This document shows positions 2,697-44,793 of a stretch of DNA of 64,000 nucleotides, piece by piece; position 1 is the stretch's first letter; each line of letters begins with the position of its first letter. The stretch lies in contig JAFXEX010000006.1 of assembly GCA_017520825.1 (NCBI GenBank), forward strand, positions 4,011 through 68,010, given 5' to 3'. A program made the translations under genes and the position numbers. Source of the stretch: Clostridia bacterium. GTDB taxonomy: Bacteria > Bacillota > Clostridia > Oscillospirales > SIG627. Below the pieces are notes generated by a model. That model was not told the origin of the DNA, ran no database searches, and saw nothing but the letters and a program-made list of their open reading frames with translations.

Positions 2697-2725
2697 AGCC
2701 TTACTTTGACAAATAAGATCATTTT

Positions 2726-2751
2726 TTATTGGACAATTTGTGTGTTATAAT
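2726..2751 (+). promoter_or_regulatory. promoter with conserved TTATTGGACA box (copy C)
   Basis: TTATTGGACAATTTGTGTGTTATAAT matches copy B at 29 of 31 positions by eye. Confidence 0.6.
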
Positions 2752-2772
2752 ATAAATATCGAGGTGATAATA

Positions 2773-3408: not shown

Positions 3409-3535
3409 AAGTGATAGTATTGAAAGCAGTTTTCACCACCTTGTGTAAAAAAACATATCGATTCAGTGATGAAAATCACCTATTGAAATTTTTATGAAAG
3501 TTGTGATCATTTCCCAGAAAAAAACCAGAGCACCT

Positions 3536-20329: not shown

Positions 20330-21178
20330 TTATTTCAATCCTTCAAAAGACACAAGCTCTATACCTGACTCGCATATAATCTTTTTTGTTTTTTCCGAAG
20401 TAAACATTTCAAATTCACGAATTCTCTGCTCAACAATCTTTCCAAAATATGGTGAATCGTTCCCTGTAGCAGGATGTATAACGTATTCACCGACATTTTT
20501 CTTCCCCCACACAATATGAGAGAACAAATGCTCTGGCTTATTAATGTCATTCACATTAAGGCAGACAATACGTCCTTCAGGTGAAACAATGCCTTTCTTA
20601 TGAGCATTAGACTGCCAAACATTCAACATTGCAGCCTTAATCGGTTCAGCTATACGCCATTTTAACGGCATGGGATGAGAGCTATCACTGCCCTTTACAT
20701 AAATTCTCTGATGGCTTCTCATTTTATTAATACCAAGCTCAGCAGCTGTATCAACAAATACTCGGTAAATTCCAAAATCTACGTGAGTATTCTGATGCGT
20801 GTTCCAATAATCAGGCTGACCCATTATTTCATAATAGAGATTATATTGAGCAATCAGCTCTTTCTTGATATCAGAAAATGAAATCAAATTTTTTCTTAAT
20901 CTTTTGCGAAACTCAGGATATGGATAAAATTCTCCAGCAGCATTAACCAATGTGGGAATTTCGTGGGCAGGAAGAATCGACTTTCCACACGCCAAAACCC
21001 AGTGAATGCCAACAGAAACGCCCTCTTTCGATTTTAATTTTACTGCGTCCTTATACAAAGGCATATTGGTCATAACATTTGTCGATGTAATGAGTCCGGC
21101 ATCTATGCCTGCATCAATTGCTTCATTAACTGCCTTAGACATACCATAATCATCGGCAGTAATAATCAACTTTTTCAT
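20330..21178 (-). CDS. ChbG/YdjC-family carbohydrate deacetylase
   Basis: MKKLIITADDYGMSKAVNEAI...GIHWVL is the typical YdjC signature. Confidence 0.75.
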   Translation of the reverse strand: MKKLIITADDYGMSKAVNEAIDAGIDAGLITSTNVMTNMPLYKDAVKLKSKEGVSVGIHWVLACGKSILPAHEIPTLVNAAGEFYPYPEFRKRLRKNLISFSDIKKELIAQYNLYYEIMGQPDYWNTHQNTHVDFGIYRVFVDTAAELGINKMRSHQRIYVKGSDSSHPMPLKWRIAEPIKAAMLNVWQSNAHKKGIVSPEGRIVCLNVNDINKPEHLFSHIVWGKKNVGEYVIHPATGNDSPYFGKIVEQRIREFEMFTSEKTKKIICESGIELVSFEGLK

Positions 21179-22647: not shown

Positions 22648-22653
22648 AATGGT

Positions 22654-23769
22654 CTAATCCCCACTTTCTCCGTTAATGGTCTTATATATTGCATCATATT
22701 TTTCAGATATCTCTTTCCAATTGAATATTCTAGAATAAGAGATGGTATTAGAGATTATATCAGAAAAATCATTGATTACTTTTTCGATTCCGTCTGCTAC
22801 GCTTGTGGCGTCATATGCAGAAACGTGATATCCAACTGTTCCCTCCGGAAATTGATTATCAAACCCTTGACCTTCTGAATATATTACAGGCAACCCCTGA
22901 CTCATTGCTTCGGCATATACAAGACCAAACGATTCCGTAAATGATGGCATTACAAATATATTGTGATTGCGATATAACTCAACTAATGATTCTTTTGGCT
23001 TAGCAGGTAAACATTCTGTATACGGATCTTTTTTTACCATTTCGTACACTTTTTCATCTGCAACCTTTCCTACAACCGTAAGCGACACATTATATCCTCT
23101 TTCCCTGAGAATTGTGGCCGCCTTCTGAGTTGTTGGAATATTCTTATTGTGATCTATTCGCCCAGCATAAATAAGCTTTATCGCATTGTCTATTTTATTA
23201 ATACTTTCCGGTGGATTTGAAAACCAAAAATCATCAATTCCGTTAGGAATAATATGCGATTTTTTTTGTATAGCATCCTGATATTTTTCAGGGATGTATT
23301 TTTCAAAGACTTGTTTTCTGTATGACTCTGACAAAAAGAAAACTGCTTTGGCGTCCAACATGGTTTTTATTCCACGCTTACGTAAATGAGGCATTAAGCG
23401 AAAGAATGCATTCACGTCTGTGTTGCGTACTGCCACCACGTATGGAATTCCGTATTTGTTGGACAGTTTTCTAGCGCAATTTCCATCAGTAAATAGCGTA
23501 TATGCATGTATTAAATCATAATCTTTAACGCGATAATTAGACTCTAATGCCGACAAAATCTTTTGTTGCTTATAGTCAAAAAGTATTCTGTCCCATTTTT
23601 TAAAGCACTCACATACAAGTACGTTATTATTGGGTTTAATAACAGATAATTCTTTATCATACGTAGGAACGAACACACTGTTATCATATCCGAGCTTCTC
23701 TAGGTTTTCGACCATAAGCTGGTGTAAGGTAGTTCCAATATAATTACAATTTATATGTAATATACGCAT
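22654..23769 (-). CDS. glycosyltransferase family 4
   Basis: 371 aa; FVMPSFTESFGLVYAEAMSQGLP. Confidence 0.85.
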   Translation of the reverse strand: MRILHINCNYIGTTLHQLMVENLEKLGYDNSVFVPTYDKELSVIKPNNNVLVCECFKKWDRILFDYKQQKILSALESNYRVKDYDLIHAYTLFTDGNCARKLSNKYGIPYVVAVRNTDVNAFFRLMPHLRKRGIKTMLDAKAVFFLSESYRKQVFEKYIPEKYQDAIQKKSHIIPNGIDDFWFSNPPESINKIDNAIKLIYAGRIDHNKNIPTTQKAATILRERGYNVSLTVVGKVADEKVYEMVKKDPYTECLPAKPKESLVELYRNHNIFVMPSFTESFGLVYAEAMSQGLPVIYSEGQGFDNQFPEGTVGYHVSAYDATSVADGIEKVINDFSDIISNTISYSRIFNWKEISEKYDAIYKTINGESGD

Positions 23770-23781
23770 ACTTAAACCTCA

Positions 23782-25104
23782 TCACAATCTCCAATACTTC
23801 ATTCCACTTGCCTTCAGATCAGACACTTTATAAAGTCCTTTAACGTCAATTAAAACTTTTTCGGTATCGTCACATACCTTAAACAACTTCTTGATATCGT
23901 CCAGACAAAGAGCCTTAAATTCATCATGAGCAACAGCCACAATTACACAATCCACTTCTGTTACGTCTTCAAGTCGTGTAAGAGTGACGCCATATTCATG
24001 CATTGCATCTCTTTCGCTCGCCCACGGATCAACAACAATAGGTGTGATCTCATATTCGGCAAGTCGCTTAATAATATCATCAACCTTGGAATTTCTGGTA
24101 TCCGGACAGTTTTCTTTAAACGTGAGTCCTAAAATAACTACTTTTGATTTCTTGGGAGCTTGTCCTACTGCTATCATATTTTTGATAGCAGCGTCTGCAA
24201 CAAACTTGCCCATACCGTCATTAACAATACGTCCGTTGAGAATAATCTGACTATGATATCCGAGCTTTTCAGCCTCGTATGTAAAGTAGTATGGATCAAC
24301 GCCGATACAATGACCACCAACAAGTCCGGGACGGAAGCCAAGGGCGTTCCATTTGGTATTCATTCCATCTACAACTTCATTTGTGTCAATTCCCATTCTG
24401 TCAAATACCATAGCAAGTTCGTTCATAAATGCAATGTTTATGTCTCTTTGGCTATTCTCAACTACCTTTATTGCCTCGGCAGTTTTTATTGTAGAAACAG
24501 GATACGTTCCTACTTCAATAACCAGATCATAAACATTCTTTATTTCTTCAAGGGAATCTGCATCCATACCCGATACGATTTTTCTGATATTTTCAAGTCG
24601 GTGAACCTTATCCCCGGGATTAATTCTTTCCGGAGAATATCCCACCTTAAAATCGACACCACATTTCATGCCCGATTCTTTTTCCAAAATCGGTATACAA
24701 ACGTCCTCGGTGACACCGGGATAAACAGTTGATTCATAAACAACTATTGAGCCTTTTACAAGGTTACGTCCAACAATTTCGCTTGCGCCAATAACAGGAG
24801 TCAAATCGGGAGTATGGTCGGTGTTTACAGGCGTAGGAACAGCAACGATGTGGAATTTTGCTTTCTGCAAGTCCTTTTCATCAGCAGTAAAATAAACGCT
24901 GCTATTTTTAATTGCTTCGTCCCCTACTTCTTTTGTGGGGTCAATACCACTCTTATAAAGCTCAATCTTTGCCTTATTAAGGTCAAAGCCAATAACGTCA
25001 ATCCCCTTATTTGCAAAAGCTACTGCGATTGGCATACCTACGTATCCAAGACCTACAAGAGACAACTTCTCATCTTTGTTAACGATTTTATTATAAAGAG
25101 ACAT
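23782..25104 (-). CDS. UDP-N-acetyl-hexosamine 6-dehydrogenase (WbpA/TviB/Cap5O family)
   Basis: LVGLGYVGMPIAVAF and GGHCIGVDP motifs. The start was set at the ATG 7 nt after GGAGGAG; the ORF track extends to 25134. Confidence 0.85.
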   Translation of the reverse strand: MSLYNKIVNKDEKLSLVGLGYVGMPIAVAFANKGIDVIGFDLNKAKIELYKSGIDPTKEVGDEAIKNSSVYFTADEKDLQKAKFHIVAVPTPVNTDHTPDLTPVIGASEIVGRNLVKGSIVVYESTVYPGVTEDVCIPILEKESGMKCGVDFKVGYSPERINPGDKVHRLENIRKIVSGMDADSLEEIKNVYDLVIEVGTYPVSTIKTAEAIKVVENSQRDINIAFMNELAMVFDRMGIDTNEVVDGMNTKWNALGFRPGLVGGHCIGVDPYYFTYEAEKLGYHSQIILNGRIVNDGMGKFVADAAIKNMIAVGQAPKKSKVVILGLTFKENCPDTRNSKVDDIIKRLAEYEITPIVVDPWASERDAMHEYGVTLTRLEDVTEVDCVIVAVAHDEFKALCLDDIKKLFKVCDDTEKVLIDVKGLYKVSDLKASGMKYWRL

Positions 25105-25171
25105 TCTGATGCTCCTCCTCGAAAAAAATTTCATTTTAACTCTTCTTAAACTCTACGGAAAAGAAATAATA

Positions 25172-25978
25172 CTATATATCAGACTTCTTTCTGACGTAAA
25201 ATATTTTTTTCAATACACCAAAAAACATATTGACGAAAGTATGCCACAATACACTTATCAAACACATTTTTTCGCCATACTTAAATAATCTGTATTGATT
25301 GCGTAGTGATTTTTTTAGTCCACTATGCGACAAAGAGCTTTTGCGAATACGATATCTGGCCAAATTCTTATTAAACAGATAGCAAGTACAATGTCTGCAC
25401 ACCTTGAGCCAAATCGCATAATCGTTACGACTTTTCAAGGAGGGCTCTACTTGAACTAATCCCACCTTTTCACGGTTGTACATAACCGTCAAGCAACCAA
25501 TGTAATTGTATTGAAACATTTTATGCTTATTAATTTTACGGGGTCCTGTAACCTCTATATTTAGTGGATTAGACTGCTCGTCAATTTGTGAATACTCCGT
25601 ATATGTAAAAGCATATCCGTTATCGACCATGAACTTTAACTGTTCTTCCAATTTTTCGGGCACCCACAAATCGTCACTATCCAGAAAAGCAATCCATTTG
25701 CCCTTTGCCTCGCGCAGAGCCGTATTTCTACTGACAGCAGCACCACTGTTAGTTTCGTTTTGATAAACGCGAATACGCTCGTCTCTGAAAGATTTTATGA
25801 GTTCCAAAGAATTGTCAGTCGAGCAGTCGTCTACGAACAACAGCTCCCAATTGGTATAGGTTTGTGACAAAACGCTTTCTATCGTTTCTCTTAAAAATTT
25901 CTCTCCGTTATAGTTTGGCATAACGATAGAAACCAAGCCATAGTCTGTAACTTCATTTATTTGTCCGTTTTCGAGCAT
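25172..25978 (-). CDS. glycosyltransferase family 2
   Basis: VSIVMPNYNGEKFLRETIESVLSQTYTNWELLFVDDCSTD and DSDD. The start was moved to the ATG after GGAGGGG. Confidence 0.85.
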   Translation of the reverse strand: MLENGQINEVTDYGLVSIVMPNYNGEKFLRETIESVLSQTYTNWELLFVDDCSTDNSLELIKSFRDERIRVYQNETNSGAAVSRNTALREAKGKWIAFLDSDDLWVPEKLEEQLKFMVDNGYAFTYTEYSQIDEQSNPLNIEVTGPRKINKHKMFQYNYIGCLTVMYNREKVGLVQVEPSLKSRNDYAIWLKVCRHCTCYLFNKNLARYRIRKSSLSHSGLKKSLRNQYRLFKYGEKMCLISVLWHTFVNMFFGVLKKIFYVRKKSDI

Positions 25979-25999
25979 ATTAGCCCCTCCACTCAATTA

Positions 26000-26698
26000 T
26001 TATACTGTCTCAGCTTGCTTTTCCTCAGCAGGCTCCTTAGCGTCTTCGATGAACTCAACGGTTTCGCTGACTACACCCTCTACAACGTCGTCGCTCTTGA
26101 ATACCTTGACGATTGTCATGAAGAAAATCTTAATGTCGAGCCAGATTGAAAAATTTTCAAGATAATATGCGTCAAACTCTGCCTTCTTAGTGGGTTGAGC
26201 TGCAAGAACGTCACGTCCGTTTACCTGAGCCCAGCCCGATATACCCGGCACCAGCTGATGCACGGCGTATTTTTCTCTGGCTTCGTTCAGCTCGGTTTCA
26301 CAAGCCTGAGACGGTCTGTAGCCAATCCAGCTCATTTTAAAAGTGAGAATGTTGAATATCTGAGGTAATTCATCTATTGAAAGCTTACGGATTATTGCAC
26401 CCGTTTTCGTTATGTAGGAGTCGGCGTTTGCATATTCATAGCCTGCAACGTCGTGTCTCGCTTCAAGAGACATACTCCTGAACTTGACACAATTGAAAAG
26501 CTTTCCGTTTCTTCCGATTCTCTTCTGAACGAAGAAAACGGGCCCCTTGGAATCAAGCTTGATTGCAATAGCCGTCACCAAAAACAAAGGGGACAGAACA
26601 ATCAAAGCAAGAAAAGCTGCGCAAAAGTCAAATATGGACTTTATAACGCGATAAATTTTTTGACCGGAGGTCAATTTGTATGTATTAGTGTTTTTCAT
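26000..26698 (-). CDS. initiating undecaprenyl-phosphate sugar phosphotransferase (bacterial sugar transferase family)
   Basis: KRIGRNGKLFNCVKFRSM...DELPQIFNIL...PGISGWAQVNGR. First gene of the locus. The likely start is MKNTN after GAGGTG. Confidence 0.88.
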   Translation of the reverse strand: MKNTNTYKLTSGQKIYRVIKSIFDFCAAFLALIVLSPLFLVTAIAIKLDSKGPVFFVQKRIGRNGKLFNCVKFRSMSLEARHDVAGYEYANADSYITKTGAIIRKLSIDELPQIFNILTFKMSWIGYRPSQACETELNEAREKYAVHQLVPGISGWAQVNGRDVLAAQPTKKAEFDAYYLENFSIWLDIKIFFMTIVKVFKSDDVVEGVVSETVEFIEDAKEPAEEKQAETV

Positions 26699-27015
26699 TT
26701 GCTCCACCTCATTTTTTGATACATTATACCTCAAAAAAATTCGCAATAACCGTCGAAATATGTCTCCTGTTGATAATATTTTAGGACTCGTAGCCGATTG
26801 ATTGCGAATAGTATGCTGTCAGACGAAAAGTCAGAACGATATTCTTTAAGAAATAATGCGCATAAGTACAGTAATTCTATATTACTCTACCTAATCATTA
26901 TAGCACAACTTTATAAAAAGTCAAATACTTTTATGAAAATACCAATATTTATTACAACTTATAATAATACTTACTTATAAATCATAACAATCAATCCTCT
27001 TTTTTCTAAAATTTA

Positions 27016-29774: not shown

Positions 29775-29808
29775 AAAAAAGAAGCTCATTGAAATGAGCT
29801 TCTTTTTT
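29775..29808. terminator. bidirectional intrinsic terminator
   Basis: AAAAAAGAAGCTCAT-TGAA-ATGAGCTTCTTTTTT lies between convergent genes. Confidence 0.85.
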
Positions 29809-29812
29809 TCTT

Positions 29813-32218
29813 CTACATATTCTCAGCCAGATAGAGATTTACTCGGCTTTCGATTATCTTGCAGGTTTCCTCAAGAGATTTTTTGCCGTCGAAGTAGGGA
29901 GCGCACTCGCCCTTGATAACCTCAATCATAGGGTCGTTGTAACGAACCACGTGAGTTGCCGTTGTTGCAACTCTGCACGTGTCCTCTATTGCCTTGAGCA
30001 TTCTTTCTCTGTATTCAACGACCTTGGGGTCCTCCTCCACGAATGGCTCGTCGGGAAGAACAACCGGCTTTTCCACTACGATTTCGTTAGCCGTTGCAAC
30101 GCTTTCAACTGTAAGGGTGGGCTTCGCCATACCGATGAAAATCTCATCGTCCATTATCATATCGTCTTGAACCACGCCGTTCACGTTGTCTATCGCCTTC
30201 TGCTTCTTGCTTTCGAAGGCTGTTTTTATAACGGGGAACTGCCAGGTGTAGTCCTCCTGATATTCTGCGTCGAATACCATCTTCAAGAAGTCCCAAGCCT
30301 GCTTTTTGTAAACCGATTTCTCACCTATTGCAAACTGCTGTGAGAAGTACATAGCGTTTCCGTCGCCACTTGCAGTGGGGAAACCGATGTAGGTGACGGG
30401 CTCACCGAAGGTTTCAACGTTGTAATACTCACCGTTCACATTGGAGAGATACGCAATCATAAGGAGTACCTTGTTTTCCTTGTATCTCTTGTCGTATTCT
30501 TCCCAGTCAATATTTTCGTAATAGGTATCCCAATCTATTTCTGCAGGAAGAGTTTTAGCAAATTCAAGGAACTTGGCAAAATTGCCGTCTGTAAAGTTGG
30601 ATTTGCCCGTATCGTAGTTGATAAAGTCCTCCAAGATAATGGGCAGGAAGCTATCCATCAAGCCTTTTCTGTCAAATTCGGAGAAGGATTCAGCGTTGGG
30701 GTACTGCTTTATAAGAGCAAGGAGGTCGTCCCAGGTCCAGGAGGTTCTGTCACCTACCACCGAGGTCTTACCTGCAACGCTTCTCACCGAGAATGAGGTG
30801 GGAAGTCTGTAAAGCTTGCCCTTTATTTCGGAGGCGTCAATGACGTTGGGAAGGAAGTCATCTCTTGAAAGCTCTTCGTCGGCGTCAAGCAATGCGCCAA
30901 GGTCGGCAAGGAGTCCCTTTGAGGCGTACTTTTCAGCGTTAAGCTGGTCAAGACAGATTATATCGGGCACGTTGCCTGCCAGAAGGTCCATATCGAACTT
31001 ATTGGTATCAGCCTCCTCCCAGCCGTAAACCTTTACCTGTATGCGATAATCCAGAGATGAACGGTTGTAGTCGATTATCATATTTTTAAGCTGACCGTCA
31101 AGGGAATTTGTAGCAAGGGTGATAACGTACTTTTCTATTATCTCGCCCTCTCCTGCAGGAGTAAGGTGGAGAATTGAACGCTTTTCATAATCGTTATCCC
31201 ATTCAAAGGTATAGATCTCGCCGTCCTGGATGCAATAGTTGAATATTCGGTCACAGTTGATGTCCGAGTTTATCCAGTCAAGCATGGGCTTTTCCTCACC
31301 GGTTGCAATATCAACACGGCTGACCACGTAATAGTCGTTGGTGTATACGTTACCCGTTGAGTCCATAAACACGTTATCGTTTACCGAAAGCTCGCAAACC
31401 GTCTTGAACTCGTTCTTTGCGATATCGTAATCAAGGATTTGAGTAGTTGGCGATTCAACCGACCAATTGTAGCATACTGCACGGAGCTTGCCTTCACCAA
31501 GGGCAGATATACTGTTGAAATAGGTGTCGTCGTCAAAGGAGTTTGACGCAAGCACCTCACCCTCGGGTGAAACGGCAGTAATACGCTTGTTGGTCATAAT
31601 ATAAGTCGTTCCGTCCTTAGCCTGAACCAACGAATGAACGTAAAGGGTATCAAGCTCGGTGACGTCAATATCGGGAACCTTGGAAAGCGTCTCCTTGCAG
31701 TCGATAATTTTGGTGCACTCACCCTTTACGTTATAGTGGTGGAGCTCCGTATTGTTTTCGTTTATCCACTCACCCATAGTATCATCCACAGGTTTAGAAT
31801 AATAGCTGGAGATAATCATCCACAAGCCACCCTGCCCGTCGGACATTGCATCGCTGAAATAGGTGCTTCTGTTCTCATGGGTGTCGGAGTCGTAGAAATT
31901 TTCACCCTCAAAGGCAAAGAATTCCTCGAAATTCTCAAAGGTTTTATCGGTGCGATATACTATCTCCGTATATTTATACTGCTCTATTCCGTCCTCGTTG
32001 ATATAACGGTCCTGTTTAGAGCCTTTAAGATACACGTTGTCCCCCGAGACGTAGAGATTGTAAACGTCAATGCCCTCGGGAATAGCAAACTTCTCGGCAA
32101 GGTATACGTTTTCAAGGGCAACCTTTTCGGGCACCTTCTGTTTATTCTTACCACCCGAGCAGGAAGCAAGGGACAAAAGAGTTGCGATTATAAGAAAAAC
32201 TGATAATACTTTTTTCAT
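29813..32218 (-). CDS. extracellular solute-binding lipoprotein with an extra ~350-aa N-terminal domain
   Basis: Signal peptide with lipobox LLSLASC. The C-terminal ~430 aa are SBP-family-1-like (LLAGNVPDIICLDQLNAEKYASKGLLADL). The N-terminal part is unassigned. Confidence 0.75.
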   Translation of the reverse strand: MKKVLSVFLIIATLLSLASCSGGKNKQKVPEKVALENVYLAEKFAIPEGIDVYNLYVSGDNVYLKGSKQDRYINEDGIEQYKYTEIVYRTDKTFENFEEFFAFEGENFYDSDTHENRSTYFSDAMSDGQGGLWMIISSYYSKPVDDTMGEWINENNTELHHYNVKGECTKIIDCKETLSKVPDIDVTELDTLYVHSLVQAKDGTTYIMTNKRITAVSPEGEVLASNSFDDDTYFNSISALGEGKLRAVCYNWSVESPTTQILDYDIAKNEFKTVCELSVNDNVFMDSTGNVYTNDYYVVSRVDIATGEEKPMLDWINSDINCDRIFNYCIQDGEIYTFEWDNDYEKRSILHLTPAGEGEIIEKYVITLATNSLDGQLKNMIIDYNRSSLDYRIQVKVYGWEEADTNKFDMDLLAGNVPDIICLDQLNAEKYASKGLLADLGALLDADEELSRDDFLPNVIDASEIKGKLYRLPTSFSVRSVAGKTSVVGDRTSWTWDDLLALIKQYPNAESFSEFDRKGLMDSFLPIILEDFINYDTGKSNFTDGNFAKFLEFAKTLPAEIDWDTYYENIDWEEYDKRYKENKVLLMIAYLSNVNGEYYNVETFGEPVTYIGFPTASGDGNAMYFSQQFAIGEKSVYKKQAWDFLKMVFDAEYQEDYTWQFPVIKTAFESKKQKAIDNVNGVVQDDMIMDDEIFIGMAKPTLTVESVATANEIVVEKPVVLPDEPFVEEDPKVVEYRERMLKAIEDTCRVATTATHVVRYNDPMIEVIKGECAPYFDGKKSLEETCKIIESRVNLYLAENM

Positions 32219-33126
32219 CGTTTTTTCCTTTCTGCAATAAATACTGCAAGGCTTATTACAAAGCCCGTAAGGGTTACAAGGTTAACGGCTAAAAGCAGAG
32301 TGAGGATATCCTCCACTCCCCTTTCGGCATTCTCCCAATAGGGATATGAAACGGCTTCACTTCTGTAAGAGCGTGTGGGAAACTCCTTGAGCAGAGAAAA
32401 GATTTTCTTCAGCTCAAAACGGGCAGTTACGTCTACCACCTCTTTACCCTCGGTGACAGAGGTAAGTCCGTTCACAGCGTATGAGTCCACGGGGTTTTGC
32501 ATCATTATTTCATAGCTGTCAAAGGGTCTCTCTCCGAAAATCCCAACGGCTATCCGTTGTGGAATATATATGACGGGCAGGTCACCAAGCTGTTGTATTT
32601 TGGCTTCGCTCTCGTCATAGGCTACCACTCCCGAAACGTAAAGCGTTTTTATTCCGATATTCAGCTTCATGTCCTCGACGTCGTTGCTTCCGAAAAGCTC
32701 GAAGGCAAGCTTTTCGTCGATAACCACCCGGTCAAGGTGAAGGTCGGTTTCGTTATAGTACCAACCACTTTTGAAATCAAGGTCGTGGAAGAGGAAGAAA
32801 TCTCCCTCGGTTACAACGGCGTTACAATTTATTGCCGTTCTGTCGGGGCGTGAAACCGAAACCTGTGTAAAATAGGAGCCTGCGTCACACCACAGTCTGC
32901 CGTCGTCCTCTGCATCTGCTTCGCTGAGCCCTTCGGCAGTAAAGCGTATATTACTTATTTCGTTATTGTTAATTCCGTCCTTATCGAACACACGGATTAT
33001 TGCATAATCCTTGCCAAAGGCTGTGGGAAGCTGGGCTTTCGCCTTGACAACTGCGTAGGAAATCAGCGACGATAAAAACAAAATCAAGGATAGTATAAGG
33101 CACAGATATTTTTTCATATCAGTCAC
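32215..33126 (-). CDS. bitopic membrane protein with MacB-periplasmic-core-domain-like ectodomain
   Basis: N- and C-terminal TM helices. VVIDEKLAFELFGSNDVEDMKLNIGIKTLYVSGVV resembles MacB_PCD. There is no FtsX helical bundle. Confidence 0.5.
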   Translation of the reverse strand: MTDMKKYLCLILSLILFLSSLISYAVVKAKAQLPTAFGKDYAIIRVFDKDGINNNEISNIRFTAEGLSEADAEDDGRLWCDAGSYFTQVSVSRPDRTAINCNAVVTEGDFFLFHDLDFKSGWYYNETDLHLDRVVIDEKLAFELFGSNDVEDMKLNIGIKTLYVSGVVAYDESEAKIQQLGDLPVIYIPQRIAVGIFGERPFDSYEIMMQNPVDSYAVNGLTSVTEGKEVVDVTARFELKKIFSLLKEFPTRSYRSEAVSYPYWENAERGVEDILTLLLAVNLVTLTGFVISLAVFIAERKKR

Positions 33127-35212
33127 TCAGCCTTACGTATCCACCCTCTTCAAAGGGCTTTGTGGAGGAAACTATTACGTACTCGTACAAATAGGATTCA
33201 TCGGTGACTATTGCCACGTTTTTGTCGTCCTCTGCCGCAACGGTTACGTCAAGCCTTGTGGCAACGTAACGGTTTCCGAGAGGTGTGGACTTGGTTTTCG
33301 TTATGTATACGAACTTGCCCTTGGAGTCCTCACGGAGAGCGCTCTTGGGAATAACCGAGGAATAGCCCGTGGTACGCTCGCCTACAAGGAGGGTGAGTGT
33401 CTGTCCCACGTTGACGTTTCCGTCAAGCTCGAAGTTGAGAGTTCTGGTCTTTCCACCTGCGTCGGGAACGATGCTTTTAAGCACTGCGCCCACGTTCTGT
33501 CCCCAATAGGTGTCCGAAACGGTGGCAGTGTCCCCTACCTTAACCTTTAACGCCTCGGTATTGCTTACCGAGAAGGACAGCGAGTATCCACTTTCCTGCA
33601 CCTCGATAACCACTGCAGCAGCGCCGTCTGACGCAATTTCTCCTGCTCTGAAGTTTACCTCGGTAACGGTACCCGAATGGGTTGCGCAAAGGTCGTAGCT
33701 CTCCTTGGCGTCTCCCTGAAGCTTTGCAAGCTTATCCTTCTTTTCCTTTATGGTCTTGAGCTGCTTATTCAGGTCGTAATCCTCAAGCTGATCTGCCTTG
33801 GCGTCGCTTTCCTTTCTCTTTTCAAGTGAAAGCTTCATTGATTCCAGACTGCGCTGGGATGACTTTATCTGATCGTCAAGTGATTCTATTTTTGAAAGCT
33901 CCTGCAATTTAGCGTCTGCCTCTGCCTTTTGCTCGGTCAGGTCTTCGAGAGCCTTCTTCTCGGTCTTAAGCTCCTCGGCAATAGTCTTGTTTAACTTATT
34001 TACAGTTGCCTGAAGTGTCTTTTTCTTTCCCTCAAGCACTCTGTTTTCATCGTCAACGGTTGCCTTTTTAAGCTCTACTGCTTCCTTGCGCTCGTTATAT
34101 TTTCTGTTGGAGCTGTTTGCCGACGAAAGTCTGCTGCTTACAGAGGATATCTGTGATTTTACGCCCGATATCTCGCTCTTTTTAGCTTCAATAGTTCTTT
34201 TTGCTTCCTTTATGTCCTCTTCCTTGTCGTCCCAAAGCGTCTTTGTGGCGTCGTACTCCGTCTGAGCGTTGTCCTTTGCAGTCTGTGCCAGATTAAGAGC
34301 GTCGAGAAGTCCGTCTCCGTCGGGGTTTGCTTCGTAGTCCTCAAGGGCTTTATCGTAGGTCGCCGTTGCCTGCTCGAGCGCCGTTTTCTTAGCCGACAAA
34401 TCGGCATCAAGGCTCAACAGGTCTGCGTAATCCTCCTCCAGATATTCAAGCTCCTTTTCAAGAGAGTCAAGCTGGTTATTGAGGGCAGTACGCTGGGATT
34501 TCAGAGAATCGGTGTCGGTATAGCTTACGTCCTCCAACAGCTTCTGCGCCAACTCGTATTCAAGCTGAGCTGCTTCACAAATAGCCGTCTGCTCTGCCAC
34601 TGCCTCACGGGCAGCAACGATTTCGGGGTCGTCTGAATTTTCGCTGATTTCTGCCAGCCTTTCTTCAAGAGCCTCTACCCTTTCCTCAGCCTTCTCAAGC
34701 TCCTGCTTCGCCTTTTCTGCATCTGCCTTCACCTGAGCCACGTACTCGTCGGTAAAGAGGGCGCGCTCCTCCATTATTTCAGCCAGATCCTCCTCGGCGT
34801 TTCTGATTGCAATTTCATCCGAGGTGTAGTCGTTTTCCGTTCTGCCGAGAATTGCTCTGTCGTAGGTCTCCTGAAGGGTTGCAATTTCTGCCTTCAACGC
34901 CTCGATACTGTCAGAGTCGGACACCGACAGACTCATAAGCACCTGCCCTGCCTCTACCTGACTGCCTCGGTTGACGTAAACCATCTCTACGGTACGGTTA
35001 CCCTTTATGCTTTCGGTATAGGTCATATTTGAAACGACCGTACCACTTCCTCTTACACCCGTCTTGATTTCTCCGTACTCGGTGTACTTGCCGTTTACCT
35101 GAGGGAGAGACCAATTGAGAATGGTGTTGGAGAAAAAGGTCAGCACCAGCATTATGGCAAGAAATACTATGGCTATATTTTTTATTACGTCTTTTCTCGT
35201 TCTTGTTTTCAT
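33119..35212 (-). CDS. HlyD/membrane-fusion-protein-like adaptor with very long coiled coil
   Basis: N-terminal TM helix and split lipoyl-like halves (VYVNRGSQVEAGQVLMSL ... GTVTEVNFRAGE). These are separated by roughly 350 aa of heptad-rich sequence. Confidence 0.75.
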   Translation of the reverse strand: MKTRTRKDVIKNIAIVFLAIMLVLTFFSNTILNWSLPQVNGKYTEYGEIKTGVRGSGTVVSNMTYTESIKGNRTVEMVYVNRGSQVEAGQVLMSLSVSDSDSIEALKAEIATLQETYDRAILGRTENDYTSDEIAIRNAEEDLAEIMEERALFTDEYVAQVKADAEKAKQELEKAEERVEALEERLAEISENSDDPEIVAAREAVAEQTAICEAAQLEYELAQKLLEDVSYTDTDSLKSQRTALNNQLDSLEKELEYLEEDYADLLSLDADLSAKKTALEQATATYDKALEDYEANPDGDGLLDALNLAQTAKDNAQTEYDATKTLWDDKEEDIKEAKRTIEAKKSEISGVKSQISSVSSRLSSANSSNRKYNERKEAVELKKATVDDENRVLEGKKKTLQATVNKLNKTIAEELKTEKKALEDLTEQKAEADAKLQELSKIESLDDQIKSSQRSLESMKLSLEKRKESDAKADQLEDYDLNKQLKTIKEKKDKLAKLQGDAKESYDLCATHSGTVTEVNFRAGEIASDGAAAVVIEVQESGYSLSFSVSNTEALKVKVGDTATVSDTYWGQNVGAVLKSIVPDAGGKTRTLNFELDGNVNVGQTLTLLVGERTTGYSSVIPKSALREDSKGKFVYITKTKSTPLGNRYVATRLDVTVAAEDDKNVAIVTDESYLYEYVIVSSTKPFEEGGYVRLSD

Positions 35213-35216
35213 GGCT

Positions 35217-36116
35217 TTATCCTTTCACACTGCCTTGATATGCTATGCCCTCAATGAGACTCTCCTCACCGTGCAGGAACAACAAAATCGGCGGTATCAT
35301 ATATATACTTGCAACTGCAAAGGCAACTCCCACCTCGCCCGAGTTTATCTGGGACAGGAAAACCGAAAGGGGTTGCTTTTCGGCATCGCTTAAAAGCACC
35401 AGCACCTGCTCCACCATATTCCAGTTATCAATAAAGGTGAGTATAATAACCGAATACAGAGCGTTCTTGCACATCGGCAAGCAGATTTTTCTGAATATTT
35501 TAAACTCACTTGCGCCGTCAAGCCTTGCTGCCTCTATTGCGCCGTAGGGTACTCTCCTCATACTCTTGGTGAGTATGAACACCGAAAGGGGTGTGAACAG
35601 TCCCGGCAGTATTACTGCCCAACGGGTGTCAAGAATTCCCAGCGTATCCGAAACGATAAAGTTTGGTACAAGGGTGACCTGATAGGGCATCAGCATCAGA
35701 ATTATGTAGGAAAAGAATACTACGCTCTTCACCTTTCCACGACATCTGTAAAAGCCGTAAGAGGCAAGAGCAGCTATGGCAATCTGACCTGCTACTATGG
35801 GCAGGGTGAGTATCATGGAGTTCCAGAATTTCAAAAGGTATTCGGGGCTCTGGAAAAGCACCGTAAAATACTGTCTGAAGGAAACTATATCGGGAATAAC
35901 CTTAAGATTTACCGACTTCGACATATAGGACGACCCACCTGCCACGTTACCGAGCACCGAGCCGTAATTTGAGGTAAGCTCGGTTTCCGACATAAAGGAA
36001 TTGGTAAAGGTCAGGAGAGTGGGCATAATGAACAGACAGGCAAAAAGCAGAGCCCAGATGAAAAACAGACTTAGTCTTATACGGCGCAGTGCTTTAGCAC
36101 GGGATATTCGTCTCAT
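35217..36116 (-). CDS. carbohydrate ABC transporter permease (MalG-like)
   Basis: 299 aa with EAA loop AARLDGASEFKIFRKICLP. Confidence 0.88.
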   Translation of the reverse strand: MRRISRAKALRRIRLSLFFIWALLFACLFIMPTLLTFTNSFMSETELTSNYGSVLGNVAGGSSYMSKSVNLKVIPDIVSFRQYFTVLFQSPEYLLKFWNSMILTLPIVAGQIAIAALASYGFYRCRGKVKSVVFFSYIILMLMPYQVTLVPNFIVSDTLGILDTRWAVILPGLFTPLSVFILTKSMRRVPYGAIEAARLDGASEFKIFRKICLPMCKNALYSVIILTFIDNWNMVEQVLVLLSDAEKQPLSVFLSQINSGEVGVAFAVASIYMIPPILLFLHGEESLIEGIAYQGSVKG

Positions 36117-36991
36117 TCCTCCACGTCCTTTCCGAATCGGTCTTCAAGGAAGAAGATGATGCCGATTATTATTACGATTACCAGCGACATTACTATTGCC
36201 GCGGCAGAAAGCTTGGGGTAATCCAGATTTTCAAAGGTATTGTTCATAAAATGCTGTAGGAAATACAAGGTTTCGTAGGGCCACTGACCTGTGAGCAGGT
36301 AGACCTCACGGAAAATCTTGAAGGAGTTAATCAAGGAAAGAAGTAATACGAAGAAGAGTGACGGCGAGAGGTATCTGAGCTTGATTTTGAAAAAGCGCTT
36401 AAGCTCTCCTGCGCCGTCTACCTCGGCGGCTTCAAGCTGGTCCTTTGGAATGTTGGACAGCGCCGACATAAACAGTATCATATTGTAGCCAAGGTTTTTC
36501 CACAAAAACAGAAGTCCTATTACAAGCTGACTGTAATCCGATTTCATCCAATCCACAGGCTCAAGACCAAAAAGTGAGACGAAGGAGTTGAAGGAGCCGT
36601 TAAAGCTGAACATTACCTGCCATATGAGAATAATGGAGGCAGTGGGAACCATCATGGGACTTAAAAAGCAGGTACGGAATTTACTCTTGCCCGGAATTTT
36701 CGAGTCGAGAATTATGGCAAGGAGCAGGGAAAGCACCACTGCAAGAAGAACGGTGGTCAGCGAAAAGGTCAGGGTATTTTTTGAGGCTATCAGAAAAGCA
36801 GAGTTTTTAAACAGTGCCCTGAAGTTGTCAAGACCCACGAAATTTTTGTTCGCCACGTTGTCAATAAGGGCGTAATAAATTATCAGCCCGAAGGGTATAA
36901 CGTAGAAAACCAGAACGCCTGCAAGGCTTGGTAATATGTAAAGCCACGAGACGGCTCTTTCCTTAATGCTTTTGTAACTGTGCTTCTTCAC
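36113..36991 (-). CDS. sugar ABC transporter permease (MalF-like)
   Basis: 292 aa with EAA loop EAAEVDGAGELKRFFKIKL. GTG start after GGAAAGGAGG. Confidence 0.88.
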   Translation of the reverse strand: MKKHSYKSIKERAVSWLYILPSLAGVLVFYVIPFGLIIYYALIDNVANKNFVGLDNFRALFKNSAFLIASKNTLTFSLTTVLLAVVLSLLLAIILDSKIPGKSKFRTCFLSPMMVPTASIILIWQVMFSFNGSFNSFVSLFGLEPVDWMKSDYSQLVIGLLFLWKNLGYNMILFMSALSNIPKDQLEAAEVDGAGELKRFFKIKLRYLSPSLFFVLLLSLINSFKIFREVYLLTGQWPYETLYFLQHFMNNTFENLDYPKLSAAAIVMSLVIVIIIGIIFFLEDRFGKDVEE

Positions 36992-37069: not shown

Positions 37070-37098
37070 AAATTATATACCCATATCTATGTAATTGC
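37070..37098 (-). promoter_or_regulatory. sigma-A-type promoter proximal to the ABC operon
   Basis: The minus strand reads TTGCAA-17 nt-TATAAT, about 80 nt upstream of the GTG start. Confidence 0.55.
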
Positions 37099-37148
37099 AA
37101 TAGCTTTTATAAAATATAAAAAATCTCTTTCGGCATAATGCTACGCAA

Positions 37149-37377: not shown

Positions 37378-37406
37378 ATAATATCATAGTTTGCAAATAT
37401 TTTCAA
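37378..37406 (-). promoter_or_regulatory. sigma-A-type promoter of the candidate RNA
   Basis: The minus strand reads TTGAAA-17 nt-TATTAT. Confidence 0.5.
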
Positions 37407-37530: not shown

Positions 37531-38346
37531 ATGAGTGAATGTACACACGACTGTTCCACCTGCGCTTCAAAGGGCAACTGCTCCTCTGAAATTCAAAAGG
37601 AACAGCTTAACAAGCACAGTAGCGTAAAAAAGGTTTACGGCATCGTCAGTGGTAAGGGTGGCGTAGGAAAATCTCTTGTCACCTCTCTTATGGCAACTGC
37701 AATGATGAGACGTGAAAACAGAACGGCAATCATCGACGCCGATATAACGGGACCCTCCATCCCCAAAATGTTCGGAGTAAAAGAGGGTATCCAATCCTGT
37801 GGTGAGGGGCTCGTGCCTGCAACCAGCAAGATGGGAATACAGATGGCGTCCGTAAATCTTATGCTTGACAACGAAACCGACCCGGTAGTATGGAGAGGAC
37901 CGGTAATTGCAGGTATGGTAAAGCAATTCTGGACCGACTTCATCTGGAGTGACGTGGACTATATGTTCATCGATATGCCTCCAGGAACCGGCGACGTTCC
38001 CCTTACGGTCTTCCAGAGCATACCTCTTGACGGAATTATTATCGTTACCTCCCCTCAGGAGCTTGTTTCAATGATAGTTTCAAAGGCAGTAAAAATGGCA
38101 CAGCTTATGAACGTGCCCATCGTGGCAATCGTTGAAAATATGAGCTATATCAAGTGTCCCGACTGCGACAAGAAGATTTACGTATTCGGCGAAAGCCGTA
38201 TCGATGAAATCGCAAAGGCAAACGGCATCGAAACCGTTGCGCGCATTCCCATGGACCCCTCTATCGCAAGACTTGCAGACAGTGGCGCAATAGAGCTGTT
38301 TGAGGGCGAGTGGCTTGATAATATTGCCGATATAATCGAGAAGTAA
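37531..38346 (+). CDS. mrp: Mrp/NBP35-family Fe-S cluster carrier ATPase
   Basis: SGKGGVGKS deviant Walker A, an N-terminal Cys-rich stretch (CTHDCSTCASKGNC) and a CPxC-like CPDC motif. Confidence 0.9.
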   Translation: MSECTHDCSTCASKGNCSSEIQKEQLNKHSSVKKVYGIVSGKGGVGKSLVTSLMATAMMRRENRTAIIDADITGPSIPKMFGVKEGIQSCGEGLVPATSKMGIQMASVNLMLDNETDPVVWRGPVIAGMVKQFWTDFIWSDVDYMFIDMPPGTGDVPLTVFQSIPLDGIIIVTSPQELVSMIVSKAVKMAQLMNVPIVAIVENMSYIKCPDCDKKIYVFGESRIDEIAKANGIETVARIPMDPSIARLADSGAIELFEGEWLDNIADIIEK

Positions 38347-38430: not shown

Positions 38431-38916
38431 TTAGTCAATTACGATTGATTCAATTGTCTGGTCAATCAGGGGACGGTTACGTCTGTCCGTTTGAACAGAT
38501 GCGATTTTGTCTACGTTTTCTATGCCCTCCGTCACCTTACCGAAGGCGGCGTACTGACCGTCAAGATAGGATGCGTCGGCGTGCATAATGAAGAATTGGC
38601 TTCCTGCTGAATTGGGGTCCATGGCACGCGCCATTGAGATTACTCCCCTTTCGTGCTTCAAGGGATTGGCTACGCCGTTTGAGGAAAATTCTCCCTTGAT
38701 AGTATGTCCGGGACCTCCCGTTCCGTTTCCGTTGGGACAACCACCCTGAATCATAAAGCCTGCAATTACACGGTGGAAGATAAGTCCGTCGTAGAAGCCC
38801 TCGTTTACAAGGCTTACGAAGTTTTCAACGGTTATAGGCGCAACGTCGGGATAAAGCTCAAGCTTTATTTGTCCACCGTCTGCCATAGTTATAGTTGCTT
38901 TTACTGTGTTTTCCAT
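38431..38916 (-). CDS. ppiB: cyclophilin-type peptidyl-prolyl isomerase
   Basis: FHRVIAGFMIQGGCP and SAGSQFFI motifs. Confidence 0.95.
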   Translation of the reverse strand: MENTVKATITMADGGQIKLELYPDVAPITVENFVSLVNEGFYDGLIFHRVIAGFMIQGGCPNGNGTGGPGHTIKGEFSSNGVANPLKHERGVISMARAMDPNSAGSQFFIMHADASYLDGQYAAFGKVTEGIENVDKIASVQTDRRNRPLIDQTIESIVID

Positions 38917-39179: not shown

Positions 39180-40886
39180 TCAGATTCTCTTAATCTTTTT
39201 TGTCGTTGTTTTATCAAATTCAGTTTTTCTTATCTCAATGCCTCTGATTTGCTTGAAAATCGGAAGCCTCTTATTGAGCTCTTGTATTTCTGCCTTGATA
39301 GCGTCCTTGACTTCGTTTATGCCGTCAAGTCCCATTTCCTTTGCCTTGTCAAAATCGGGGAATATCTGGGCTGTGATAACGGTTTCGCCCGATTGGTTGG
39401 GCTTACCTACCACTACGCACTCGGAAACAAGGTCGATTTTGTAAATATGCTCCTCAAGCTCCTCGGGGAACACGTTCTTGCCGTTATCGAGTATTATTAT
39501 ATTCTTTTTTCTGCCGGTGATGTAGATAAATCCGTCCTCGTCGATATATCCCACGTCGCCCGTTGAGAACCAGCCGTCCTCGTCGATTACCTCTGCAGTA
39601 AGCTGAGGTGCCTTATAATAGCCCTTCATAACGTTGGGGCCTCTTACGATTATTTCGCCCTCGGTGTCCTCGGGAGAAAGCTTGTCAATCTTAACCTCTA
39701 CGTCGTGTACGGGAAGTCCTACCGAAGCGTACTTCTTCCAATGGAATGGGCAGACGGAAACAAGGGGTGAGCATTCGGTGATGCCGTAGCCCTGTACCAA
39801 ATTTATGCCAAGCTCATCAAAGCCCTTTACGTAATCGGGTGAGAGAGCCGCGCCTCCACAGACTATCTTCTTCAGTCTTCCACCGAAGGCGGCGTTTACC
39901 TGACCGAAAAAGGCTGAACGAAGGTCTATATTTACGTGTCTCAAAGCATTACTGATAGCGATACCACGCTTCAGTTTCTTGGTCTGATTGTTCTTCAGCG
40001 CCGTGTCCCAAATTCTCTTATACACAGTGGTAACGAAGAGTGGAACGAGTATCATCGCCGTAGGCTTGAACAGCTGAAGGTTCTTCGTGAGATACTTCAT
40101 ACTGTCGTTAATGCATACCGTTGCGCCCACCAGAATAGGCGTGAGTATTCCACAGGTCATTTCGTAGGTGTGATGTATGGGAAGCACCGACATAACCACG
40201 TCCTTGTCGGTGAAGCTGAGCATTCGTGCTGATGAACGCACCGCGGATACGATGTTGTTCTGGGACAGAACCACACCCTTGGAGGTACCCGTAGTACCCG
40301 AGGTGAATATTATTACGGCATCGTCGTCAACGTTGGTTTCACAGTCGAAAAATTCGGTATAGCCCTCTTCAATAAGACGGTTGCCTCTTTCGGAAAGCTC
40401 GTCGGTGGTGATAAACCTTTCGTCCTTCTGCTTTTCCTGGTCGAAGCCTCCCATTCTTATAAAATAAGAAATCTTGCTATCGTCGGCAAGGGCTTCAAAA
40501 TAATTGTGAAATCTTTCAGAGTATACCACGGCAGAAACCTCGGCAAGCTCAAGGAACTTACCTATTTCTTCCTCGGTAAGCTCTTTATCAAGAGGAACGA
40601 TGACCGAGCCACCGGTGACTGCTGCAAGGTAGGTGGCAATCCATTCCTTTGAGGTTTCGCCTATTACGGCAACGTTCTTTCCTCTCAAGCCGAGAGAATA
40701 AAACGCCATTCCAAGTTCGTCTATATATTTATCAAATTCAAGATAGCTTACGTCTATTACTTCGCCCTTTTCCTGCCCCTTGTATCTGAGATACGTTTTG
40801 TCGGGCATAAGCTGAGCAGCAGACTTAACAAGCTCTCTGAGATTATCAAAGGGTCTGCGTTGGTAATCGGGATATTCTTTTTTCAT
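39180..40886 (-). CDS. AMP-binding long-chain acyl-CoA/ACP ligase
   Basis: IIFTSGTTGTSKGV (A3) and GWFSTGDVGYIDEDGFIYITGRKK (A8) motifs. The start was set at the ATG after AAAGGAGA; the ORF track extends to 40985. Confidence 0.85.
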   Translation of the reverse strand: MKKEYPDYQRRPFDNLRELVKSAAQLMPDKTYLRYKGQEKGEVIDVSYLEFDKYIDELGMAFYSLGLRGKNVAVIGETSKEWIATYLAAVTGGSVIVPLDKELTEEEIGKFLELAEVSAVVYSERFHNYFEALADDSKISYFIRMGGFDQEKQKDERFITTDELSERGNRLIEEGYTEFFDCETNVDDDAVIIFTSGTTGTSKGVVLSQNNIVSAVRSSARMLSFTDKDVVMSVLPIHHTYEMTCGILTPILVGATVCINDSMKYLTKNLQLFKPTAMILVPLFVTTVYKRIWDTALKNNQTKKLKRGIAISNALRHVNIDLRSAFFGQVNAAFGGRLKKIVCGGAALSPDYVKGFDELGINLVQGYGITECSPLVSVCPFHWKKYASVGLPVHDVEVKIDKLSPEDTEGEIIVRGPNVMKGYYKAPQLTAEVIDEDGWFSTGDVGYIDEDGFIYITGRKKNIIILDNGKNVFPEELEEHIYKIDLVSECVVVGKPNQSGETVITAQIFPDFDKAKEMGLDGINEVKDAIKAEIQELNKRLPIFKQIRGIEIRKTEFDKTTTKKIKRI

Positions 40887-41033
40887 AACTTCTCCTTTCT
40901 GCTCTTCAATCATTATATTGTTTATTCGGTAATTTGTCAAGTTTTGTTTGAAAAATTTGTTTTTGGCTTTACATTCCCGAAACAATATGTTAATATTAGT
41001 AGGCAGTAAATTTCAGGAAAGGCATTAACCTCT

Positions 41034-42294: not shown

Positions 42295-43467
42295 TTATCT
42301 CTCTTTGTTCTTGGGTGAAAGCATATACCAGAAGGAGCCCGAAAGGAATACAGAGGAGTAAAGACCTGCCAATATTCCTACGATGAGAGGAAGTGCGAAT
42401 TCCTTGATTGAATGTACTCCGAAGATATAAATCATACCTATTGTGAAGAGAGTTGTAATGGTTGTGTTTATAGAGCGCATAAGAGTCTGACGGGCGCTGA
42501 TATTAATTACCACGCCAAAGTCGGTTCTGCCCATTTTCTTACGGTTTTCACGCACACGGTCAAAGAGAATGATGGTAGCGTTAATAGAATAACCGAGAAT
42601 GGTGAGCATTACGGCAATAATGTTTGAGCTGACAGGTATGCCGAATACTGCGTATGAAGCAATTACGATAATTATATCGTGAATGAGGCAAAGAATTGAA
42701 GCGATAGCAGATCTGAATTCAAATCTTACCGTGATGTAAACCAGCATAAGAATAACGGCAATGACCGTTGCAACAACTGCAGAGCGCTTAATCTCGTTTG
42801 AAATTGAAGCACTTATTCTTGATTCTGCGATTACCTCAATCGGCTCTGTTCCACCGTAAGTTATTTCAACTGTTTCAAGCTCCTCGGTTGTTTCGTAAGG
42901 AGTTGTTTCAACTATTTCATCAGCAGTTTCATCTGCAGTTTCGTCTGCAGTTTCGTCTGCAGTTTCTTCAACTGTTTCGTCTGTGGTTTCGTCTGCAGTT
43001 TCGTCTGCAGTTTCGTCTGTGGTTTCGTCTGCTGTCTCGTCGGCAGTTTCATCTGCAGTTTCGTCTGTGGTTTCATCTGTAGTTTCGTCTGCAGTTTCTT
43101 CCTCTTCCTCAACCACGGGTGCGCCGTAGGCTATATTGAGAACGTTATAAACCTCCTCAACCACCTCGGGTGAAGCGTCGGCAGCCTTGATTATAACGCT
43201 GCTTGAATCGTCGCCCGACTTCTGAACGGAGGTAACGGTAATGCCGTCTACGGCATTTACCATTTCTCTGATGTTGTCAAGCTCTGCCTTGTCAAGAGTC
43301 TTGTGAAGGTCATACTGAAGGGAGATACCACCTGCAAAGTCGGTGTCAAAGTTGAAGCCGTTGATGAACATAAAGGCAACGCCTATAAGAATAACTGCGA
43401 TAGCAATGGAGAACCAAAGCTTACGAAGTCCTACTATTTCCATTTGTTCTTTTGTAATGAATTTCAT
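42295..43467 (-). CDS. secF: protein translocase subunit SecF with an acidic tandem-repeat insertion
   Basis: SecF N-terminus (KLWFSIAIAVILIGV..FDTDFAGG) and a C-terminal 6-TM SecDF domain. Carries an inserted (A/T)DET repeat block. Confidence 0.9.
   Translation of the reverse strand: MKFITKEQMEIVGLRKLWFSIAIAVILIGVAFMFINGFNFDTDFAGGISLQYDLHKTLDKAELDNIREMVNAVDGITVTSVQKSGDDSSSVIIKAADASPEVVEEVYNVLNIAYGAPVVEEEEETADETTDETTDETADETADETADETTDETADETADETTDETVEETADETADETADETADEIVETTPYETTEELETVEITYGGTEPIEVIAESRISASISNEIKRSAVVATVIAVILMLVYITVRFEFRSAIASILCLIHDIIIVIASYAVFGIPVSSNIIAVMLTILGYSINATIILFDRVRENRKKMGRTDFGVVINISARQTLMRSINTTITTLFTIGMIYIFGVHSIKEFALPLIVGILAGLYSSVFLSGSFWYMLSPKNKER
42917..43097 (-). repeat. 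12-bp tandem repeat (~15 units) encoding (T/A)DET(T/A)DET inside secF
   Basis: Unit GTTTCGTCTGCA (plus strand) repeated with minor variants. It produces spurious ORFs in other frames. Confidence 0.9.
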
Positions 43468-43485
43468 TTAACGTCTCCCCCTTTC

Positions 43486-44757: not shown

Positions 44758-44793
44758 TTTCGTTATTCCTTTCATTTATATAATGCTTTTGAT

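Follow-up and report, generated by a model that had tools for sequence, protein, structure and literature searches.

Two kinds of described ATP-binding cassette (ABC) system are closest to the locus examined here. The first comprises the CUT1 sugar importers, represented by MalEFGK2, the MsmX-dependent importers of Bacillus subtilis and the MsmK-dependent importers of Streptococcus pneumoniae, in which two BPD_transp_1 permeases with EAA loops are combined with a cluster-B lipoprotein substrate-binding protein (SBP). Their ATPase gene is usually unlinked; multitask MsmX/MsmK ATPases are established in Firmicutes and an unlinked gene commonly serves several importers (PMC7658222, PMC5730181). 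The second kind comprises Spr0693-0694-0695 of S. pneumoniae and YknXYZ of B. subtilis, monoderm systems in which a membrane-fusion protein (MFP) with a transmembrane (TM) anchor, lipoyl domain, hairpin and barrel is found together with a MacB-type ectodomain held between stalk helices (PMC5768738, PMC5985334). The subject of this work is a five-gene module containing parts of both kinds. It lies within a 64,000-nt stretch of the genome of a Clostridia bacterium (assembly GCA_017520825.1, contig JAFXEX010000006.1, positions 4,011 to 68,010), called the window below, and encodes in order two permeases (P1 and P2), an MFP, a protein with a MacB-like periplasmic core domain (PCD) between two TM segments, called the PCD protein, and an SBP (Table 1). 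The evidence tips modestly towards the module being a CUT1-type (MalFGK2-like, type I) sugar importer with a conserved MFP/PCD accessory pair and an unlinked MsmK/MalK-type ATPase.

The module differs from the CUT1 systems in that MFP and PCD genes lie between the permease and SBP genes, which is the case in no described CUT1 member. Its SBP is also roughly double the normal size and includes an all-beta N-terminal domain (~330 residues) belonging to no known family, and its gene neighbours show no enrichment for carbohydrate-active enzymes (CAZymes) or sugar regulators. In contrast to Spr0693-0695 and YknXYZ, the PCD protein has TM1 and TM2 only and no FtsX bundle, the operon contains no MacB-type ATPase, and the partners are importer permeases and SBPs. 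A third system, mycobacterial Mce, is an envelope-spanning importer made of MlaE-type permeases and a needle of MCE proteins. The likeness to Mce is one of concept only, namely an ABC importer with an elongated envelope-bridging accessory; the parts are unrelated, the module has neither MCE domains nor MlaE-type permeases, and no homology is expected.

A preliminary description of the window, made from the sequence alone, regarded the combination as undescribed and the rationale for an MFP in a monoderm as unclear. The second view is partly outdated since the monoderm MFPs YknX, Spr0693 and MesE are already documented (PMC5985334, PMC4446572). The first holds for the literature searched: the module was not described in the full-text articles, a set which omits most subscription journals, nor in a Butyrivibrio transcriptome paper, and a 2026 review of bacterial glycoside transporters makes no mention of HlyD, membrane fusion, MacB, adaptors or accessory proteins. 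A review of the MacB family treats MacB as a mechanotransducer class apart from importers and ties Gram-positive adaptors to macB homologues, and an adaptor review lists Gram-positive adaptors with exporters only. Public records label the parts piecemeal, as 'HlyD family efflux transporter periplasmic adaptor subunit', 'ABC transporter permease' and 'extracellular solute-binding protein'.

Conservation of the module

Relatives of the PCD protein were sought with a pattern search of GTDB, using one genome per species. At least 585 stretches were found in the species genomes, and the 80 loci listed from these, together with 5 metagenome loci, form the set of 85 analysed here by calling open reading frames (ORFs) and scoring them with profiles of the five proteins. 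All 80 GTDB loci are from Clostridia (Lachnospiraceae, Oscillospiraceae, Ruminococcus and Acetivibrio). The order P1-P2-MFP-PCD was present in every one of the 85 loci with sufficient flanks, usually with a large SBP gene next, and one or two extra large SBP genes lie upstream in about half of them. Median gene spacings are -4, 22, 12 and -1 nt. Around adaptor homologues of 59%, 44% and 30% identity the five-gene order is kept in unrelated genomic settings. Chance would not account for the arrangement, since the order of genes is repeated in each of the 80 GTDB loci, at 30-63% identity over the best matched segment of the PCD protein. Thus the arrangement is not restricted to the source genome, a possibility that the preliminary description had left standing. 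The PCD family is also large, since a profile search of 1.84 billion representative proteins gave 663 clusters (50% identity, E <= 1e-30), nearly all of 340-500 aa.

Natural fusions of the PCD protein to an SBP were found in two clusters, P0345 and P0359. The junction in P0345 keeps an intact lipoprotein signal peptide with its lipobox. In P0359 the linker is a TM helix lacking cysteine, so this protein is probably a true tether holding the SBP permanently to the PCD protein. The fusions, and P0359 with its Cys-less linker in particular, argue for a physical association of the PCD protein with the SBP. A further family member, P0365 (559 aa), ends in a HAD-type hydrolase domain that is presumably cytoplasmic. 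This domain either hints at a connection with sugar-phosphate metabolism or results from a fusion made in gene calling.

Cultured carriers of the module are available for experiments, namely Kineothrix alysoides KNHs209, Acetatifactor muris DSM 23669 and A. aquisgranensis DSM 110981; Butyrivibrio sp. LB2008, which also has a PCD family member, is available as well. In A. muris DSM 23669 the MFP gene is broken into ORFs of 439 and 206 aa (L044:6023-7930), and in Clostridium sp. CAG:510 P2 is broken into ORFs of 224 and 131 aa (L068:5266-6240). These breaks are frameshifts or assembly errors and bear on the choice of experimental strain.

Permeases and energy source

The assignment of P1 and P2 as MalF-like and MalG-like importer permeases was upheld. 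Pfam BPD_transp_1 matched both P1, of the MalF/UgpA type (9.6e-18), and P2, of the MalG/UgpE type (2.2e-12), and EAA loops were seen in the translations (EAAEVDGAG in P1 and EAARLDGAS in P2). The EAA loop is the signature contact for an importer ATPase. Because the NCBIfam matches (for P1, UgpA at 121 bits and MalF at 77 bits; for P2, GlcU, UgpE and MalG) are all below the equivalog cut-offs, the profile-based assignment extends to family level only.

As the preliminary description had stated, no nucleotide-binding subunit accompanies them; neither a Walker-A nor an LSGGQ signature of an ABC ATPase was found in any frame of the 64-kb window. Its suggestion that a shared MsmK-type ATPase might be used is supported by two other loci, L039 and L073, where an ATPase gene directly follows and overlaps the PCD gene. 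The product has the ABC_tran, OB_MalK and TOBE_2 domains and is thus of the MalK type found in sugar importers.

Substrate-binding lipoprotein

The SBP was expected to carry a lipobox and does so (LASC, with Cys20), the cysteine being invariant in 36 homologues. It matches Pfam SBP_bac_8 (3.6e-18) and SBP_bac_1 (5.6e-15). The predicted structure, with a predicted local distance difference test (pLDDT) score of 85.9, comprises an all-beta N-terminal domain (~30-355), the binding fold (363-681), a disordered insert (684-725) and C-terminal helices. Foldseek with this model gave CbpC (1e-14), MalE and YesO, over a range of 1e-14 to 1e-12, as well as a sophoro-oligosaccharide binding protein, and the binding fold is of the sugar type, cluster B, among oligosaccharide binders. 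The N-terminal beta domain had no Pfam match even at E<=1, and the Foldseek search of the whole model was taken up by the SBP fold, leaving the beta domain unclassified. A match to the Mal s 1 propeller was obtained with a sibling SBP but was sub-threshold only.

Membrane-fusion protein

The proposal that the 697-aa protein is an MFP with a split lipoyl domain was borne out. HlyD_3 was matched at residues 510-611 with 22.9 bits (Pfam cut-off 22.2), and with 28.1 bits when the C-terminal fragment alone was used; HlyD_D23 reached 28.5 bits, which is under its cut-off of 30, and Pfam Biotin_lipoyl_2 was matched at 75-95. Searches of the PDB with the single sequences of this and the PCD protein returned noise only, and family profiles were needed. 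A profile of 30 MFP family members matched adaptors of the TriA/B type, LipC, EmrA and MacA (structures 6vej_P, 5nen, 4tko and 4dk0). The myosin and SMC matches which dominated this search were disregarded as coiled-coil noise, and the NCBIfam SMC/Rad50 and PADLOC LmuB matches are the same artefact and give no link to a defence system. Domain searches found no hydrolase, kinase or other output domain in the MFP.

The anatomy is that of an N-terminal TM helix, split lipoyl domain, helical hairpin, beta-barrel and conserved C-terminal domain, and full-length family members vary from ~486 to 782 aa. The coiled coil noticed earlier is present, although its length is ~400 residues (98-505) and not the ~350 first estimated, and it has a Pro/Gly-rich tip at 297-301. 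Positions 95-510 contain eight Pro/Gly residues in all, three of which are clustered at this midpoint. The scarcity of Pro/Gly residues and their clustering at the central tip indicate a hairpin with arms of ~200 residues, and such arms would reach up to ~30 nm if continuously helical. A fully helical hairpin of ~300 Å would exceed every solved one several-fold in length, the helical barrel of Spr0693 being ~56 Å (PMC5768738) and the MacA stem 70 Å (PMC5985334). The whole S. pneumoniae assembly rises ~154 Å from the membrane and enters the inner zone of the wall (PMC5768738).

Mean column identity in the MFP family is 0.86 in the TM and juxtamembrane region, 0.70 in the C-terminal domain and ~0.40 in the hairpin arms. 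The high value in the TM segment compared with the arms suggests that the MFP has a specific membrane partner and that the length of the hairpin matters more than its sequence.

The PCD protein

The resemblance of the ectodomain to the MacB PCD, proposed in the preliminary description, was found in Pfam, family-profile and structure comparisons. Pfam MacB_PCD was matched with 29.8 bits (cut-off 27), and the family profile matched the MacB periplasmic domain (6.9e-10) and YknZ (1e-5) in the PDB. An AlphaFold model (pLDDT 89.4) consists of a helix, an alpha/beta ectodomain and a long helix, and all 31 of its Foldseek matches at E <= 1e-3 are MacB-family proteins (MacB, YknZ, Spr0695, YbbP and LolC/E), the next match being YtrF at 1.6e-3. 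NCBIfam has no model for the protein. Three motifs are invariant in the family: GDFFLFH, IDxxxAxxLFGSNDV and YPYWEN, the last being located atop the second stalk helix (TM2).

The protein had been called bitopic. This was incorrect, as both the model and hydropathy give two TM helices, one at each end. The absence of the FtsX bundle was correctly recognised; no FtsX match was found in Pfam and, with two TM helices only, the protein has no four-helix bundle. Across the 85 family members, two TM segments were predicted in 70, three in 13 and one in 2. In 12 of the members with three segments the additional one is a marginal window falling within the ectodomain, and a TM3/TM4 bundle was seen in none of the exceptions displayed, which did not include the thirteenth three-segment case. 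From its sequence and model, the PCD protein appears to be a derived fragment of a MacB/FtsX permease, the N-terminal half without TM3/TM4, and to stand outside the permease family proper.

Operon structure

The ORF check confirmed the five ORFs at the coordinates first reported, on the minus strand. As originally called, the junctions P1/P2, P2/MFP, MFP/PCD and PCD/SBP measured -4, +4, -8 and -4 nt. The two 4-nt overlaps and the 4-nt gap stand, but the 8-nt overlap is doubtful. Homologues of the PCD protein begin MKK or MKR and the NCBI product has 300 aa, thus the internal ATG (Table 1) is more likely to be the real start. The MFP/PCD junction would then become a 1-nt gap, which is still tight.

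A GGAGG ribosome-binding site lies 7 nt ahead of the GTG of P1. With promoter-like hexamers 5' of P1, a strong intrinsic terminator 3' of the SBP gene and no convincing internal terminator between the five genes in a sequence scan, the genes look like one transcription unit. A division into separate transcripts, named in the preliminary description as an outcome that would speak against it, finds no counterpart in these predicted signals.

Table 1. Features of the module and its flanks in the 64,000-nt window.
Feature	Position	Strand	Remarks
P1	36991-36113	minus	292 aa, GTG start
P2	36116-35217	minus	299 aa
MFP	35212-33119	minus	697 aa
PCD protein (TM1-PCD-TM2)	33126-32215	minus	303 aa from GTG; 300 aa from ATG at 33117
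SBP	32218-29813	minus	801 aa
Promoter-like site TTGCAA-17-TATAAT	37072-37100	minus	5' of P1; consensus scan 10/12, pattern match only
Second promoter-like site	37378-37406	minus	consensus scan, pattern match only
Intrinsic terminator	29775-29808	minus	15-bp stem and T-tract, 5 nt past SBP stop codon
ORF of 871 aa	27066-29681	plus	no predicted TM; convergent with SBP gene
Polysaccharide biosynthesis cluster	21175-26746	minus	initiating sugar transferase (Bac_transf), GT2, UDP-glucose dehydrogenase, GT4
Mrp/NUBPL-type P-loop NTPase	37531-38346	plus	other flank of module, housekeeping
Cyclophilin	38431-38916	minus	other flank, housekeeping
AMP-binding acyl-CoA ligase	39180-40985	minus	other flank, housekeeping
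SecDF	42295-44775	minus	other flank, housekeeping

Genomic neighbourhood

The 126 genes closest to the module have housekeeping roles (PHP, thiamin pyrophosphokinase, YgjP, ThiF, Rce1-like and cation efflux), and neither a glycoside hydrolase nor a sugar regulator was present among their 25 commonest families. The idea that the module serves glycan foraging therefore receives no support from context.

On the SBP side of the module in the window is an 871-aa ORF (Table 1) for which no match was found in Pfam, NCBIfam, the PDB or PADLOC. A homologue, 32% identical, lies directly upstream of the module and on the same strand in loci L003 and L004, so the 871-aa protein may be a partner enzyme of an undescribed family. 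An AMP-binding enzyme, encoded on the other flank in the window, is also found downstream of the module in L003 and L004. Beyond the 871-aa ORF is a polysaccharide biosynthesis cluster (Table 1), from which co-directional ORFs extend to 12825, only the region in the table having been scanned. A functional tie between the module and this exopolysaccharide cluster was considered and rejected as the adjacency is not conserved in other loci.

Exporter genes adjoin the module in four of the loci. In L014 and L037 an ABC ATPase and a ~1,100-aa FtsX/MacB_PCD permease lie immediately upstream (about 1-4300); in L013 an HlyD adaptor and an ATPase are upstream, and in L025 a homologue of the large permease is present in truncated form. 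The MFP and PCD parts may have evolved from these exporters.

Proposed mechanism

If the module is an importer, P1 and P2 would form a heterodimeric channel to which one to three large lipoprotein SBPs would bring the substrate, and uptake would be powered by a MalK/MsmK-type ATPase whose gene usually lies elsewhere and which other sugar importers probably use too. To these, the MFP and the PCD protein would add two co-evolving envelope subunits. In MacB the TM1 and TM2 stalk helices make up the central dimer bundle, and the TM3/TM4 region bears the ATPase contacts. Since the PCD protein has kept the ectodomain and the two stalk helices and has lost TM3/TM4 and with them those contacts, it is most likely a passive docking base. 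The MFP, anchored by its conserved TM helix, could sit on this base as MacA sits on MacB, with the hairpin projecting into or through the cell wall. By estimate, a length of ~30 nm should be enough to penetrate far into a Gram-positive wall and perhaps to cross it. The MFP/PCD pair would keep a route through the wall open and position the SBPs at the permease. Spr0693-0695 offers a precedent for an adaptor which docks on a PCD and reaches the Gram-positive wall space (PMC5768738). We infer that the parts come together as a complex; its stoichiometry, the inward direction of transport and the substrate belong to the same proposal, and less confidence is placed in the scaffold or conduit function of the pair than in the identification of the module as an importer.

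Several points weigh against the proposal. The flanks lack the enrichment in CAZymes or sugar regulators that would be usual at a locus for nutrient glycans; this context differs from that of typical Gram-positive glycan loci and gives no pointer to the substrate. The Pfam scores of the MFP are near their cut-offs, and the hairpin length is an estimate from sequence, not from a predicted structure. To our knowledge, no ABC importer has an MFP or a PCD, and the docking suggested here is drawn by analogy with MacA and MacB. A hexameric MacA-like ring around a PCD dimer would seem to hinder an 85-kDa SBP from reaching the permease, so the geometry would have to differ from that of MacAB. Finally, the P0345 fusion could be a read-through or processing artefact.

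If all the details held, these would be the first monoderm ABC importers to have an adaptor of their own that spans the wall. This adaptor, a tube or mast like MacA and up to ~30 nm long, would stand on a PCD-only base and be combined with MalFG permeases and propeller-bearing SBPs, so that the architecture of a tripartite pump would run inward. Lachnospiraceae and Oscillospiraceae of the gut and rumen would have in it a widespread, conserved route of uptake. In this full form the proposal is tentative and on balance doubtful.

Alternative explanations

An alternative is that the module is an export or extraction machine for an envelope glycoconjugate or a lipid-linked molecule. The MalFG-like permeases would then work outward or serve as mechanotransducers, the PCD protein and MFP would move the cargo off the membrane in the manner of MacAB, LolCDE or DevBCA, and the role of acceptor or chaperone would fall to the SBP. 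Outside this module, MFP and PCD parts are known solely from systems of efflux, extraction or mechanotransmission (PMC5985334). The neighbours of the module are moreover housekeeping genes and not catabolic ones, and in the window the operon adjoins an exopolysaccharide biosynthesis cluster. However, that adjacency is not kept in other loci and every energised part of the module is of the importer type: BPD_transp_1 permeases, cluster-B SBPs and MalK ATPases with OB and TOBE domains are known from importers only. In the PCD protein, all the elements by which MacB-type PCDs are coupled to ATP hydrolysis are missing. Export is thus considered unlikely.

The PCD protein and the coiled-coil MFP might instead form a regulatory device like FtsEX, relaying the transporter cycle or the occupancy of the SBP to a partner in wall remodelling or signalling, with sensing being more important than bulk uptake. 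FtsX-type ectodomains bind the coiled-coil partners EnvC, PcsB and CwlO. Of these interactions, the one between FtsEX and PcsB is documented in PMC5768738. The housekeeping and conserved character of the neighbourhood would suit such a device, and the high conservation of the MFP TM helix suggests contacts inside the membrane. Against this, no output domain was found in the MFP, nor in the operon among the loci examined, the MFP has the full lipoyl and barrel architecture of transport adaptors, and the presence of several paralogous SBPs per locus fits nutrient capture better. A regulatory device is accordingly regarded as improbable.

The last alternative, an ordinary sugar importer with a degenerate, non-functional MacAB-like remnant inserted between its permease and SBP genes, could draw on the truncated appearance of the PCD protein and on the MacAB-like exporter genes adjoining the module in L013, L014, L025 and L037, but it is very hard to reconcile with a position unchanged in every examined locus down to ~30% identity, with invariant motifs (YPYWEN, GDFFLFH), intact frames and tight coupling, and with 663 sequence clusters of uniform architecture and the SBP fusions.

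Significance

Within the literature searched, the module is undescribed; it is best taken as a form of ABC sugar importer, with a reasonable chance of being a novel design of importer in monoderms. The roles so far assigned to MFPs and MacB-type periplasmic domains are in efflux, secretion or extraction, and their presence in an importer operon would widen these. Because the parts are annotated piecemeal, the module escapes notice and is mistakenly associated with efflux or resistance. The finding would also bear on how large substrates cross the thick Gram-positive wall to reach transporters in the membrane. The carriers are dominant in the gut and rumen and include Acetatifactor, Kineothrix, Roseburia and Butyrivibrio of the Lachnospiraceae, as well as Oscillospiraceae and Ruminococcus. 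An unrecognised uptake system in such Clostridia could matter for gut ecology.

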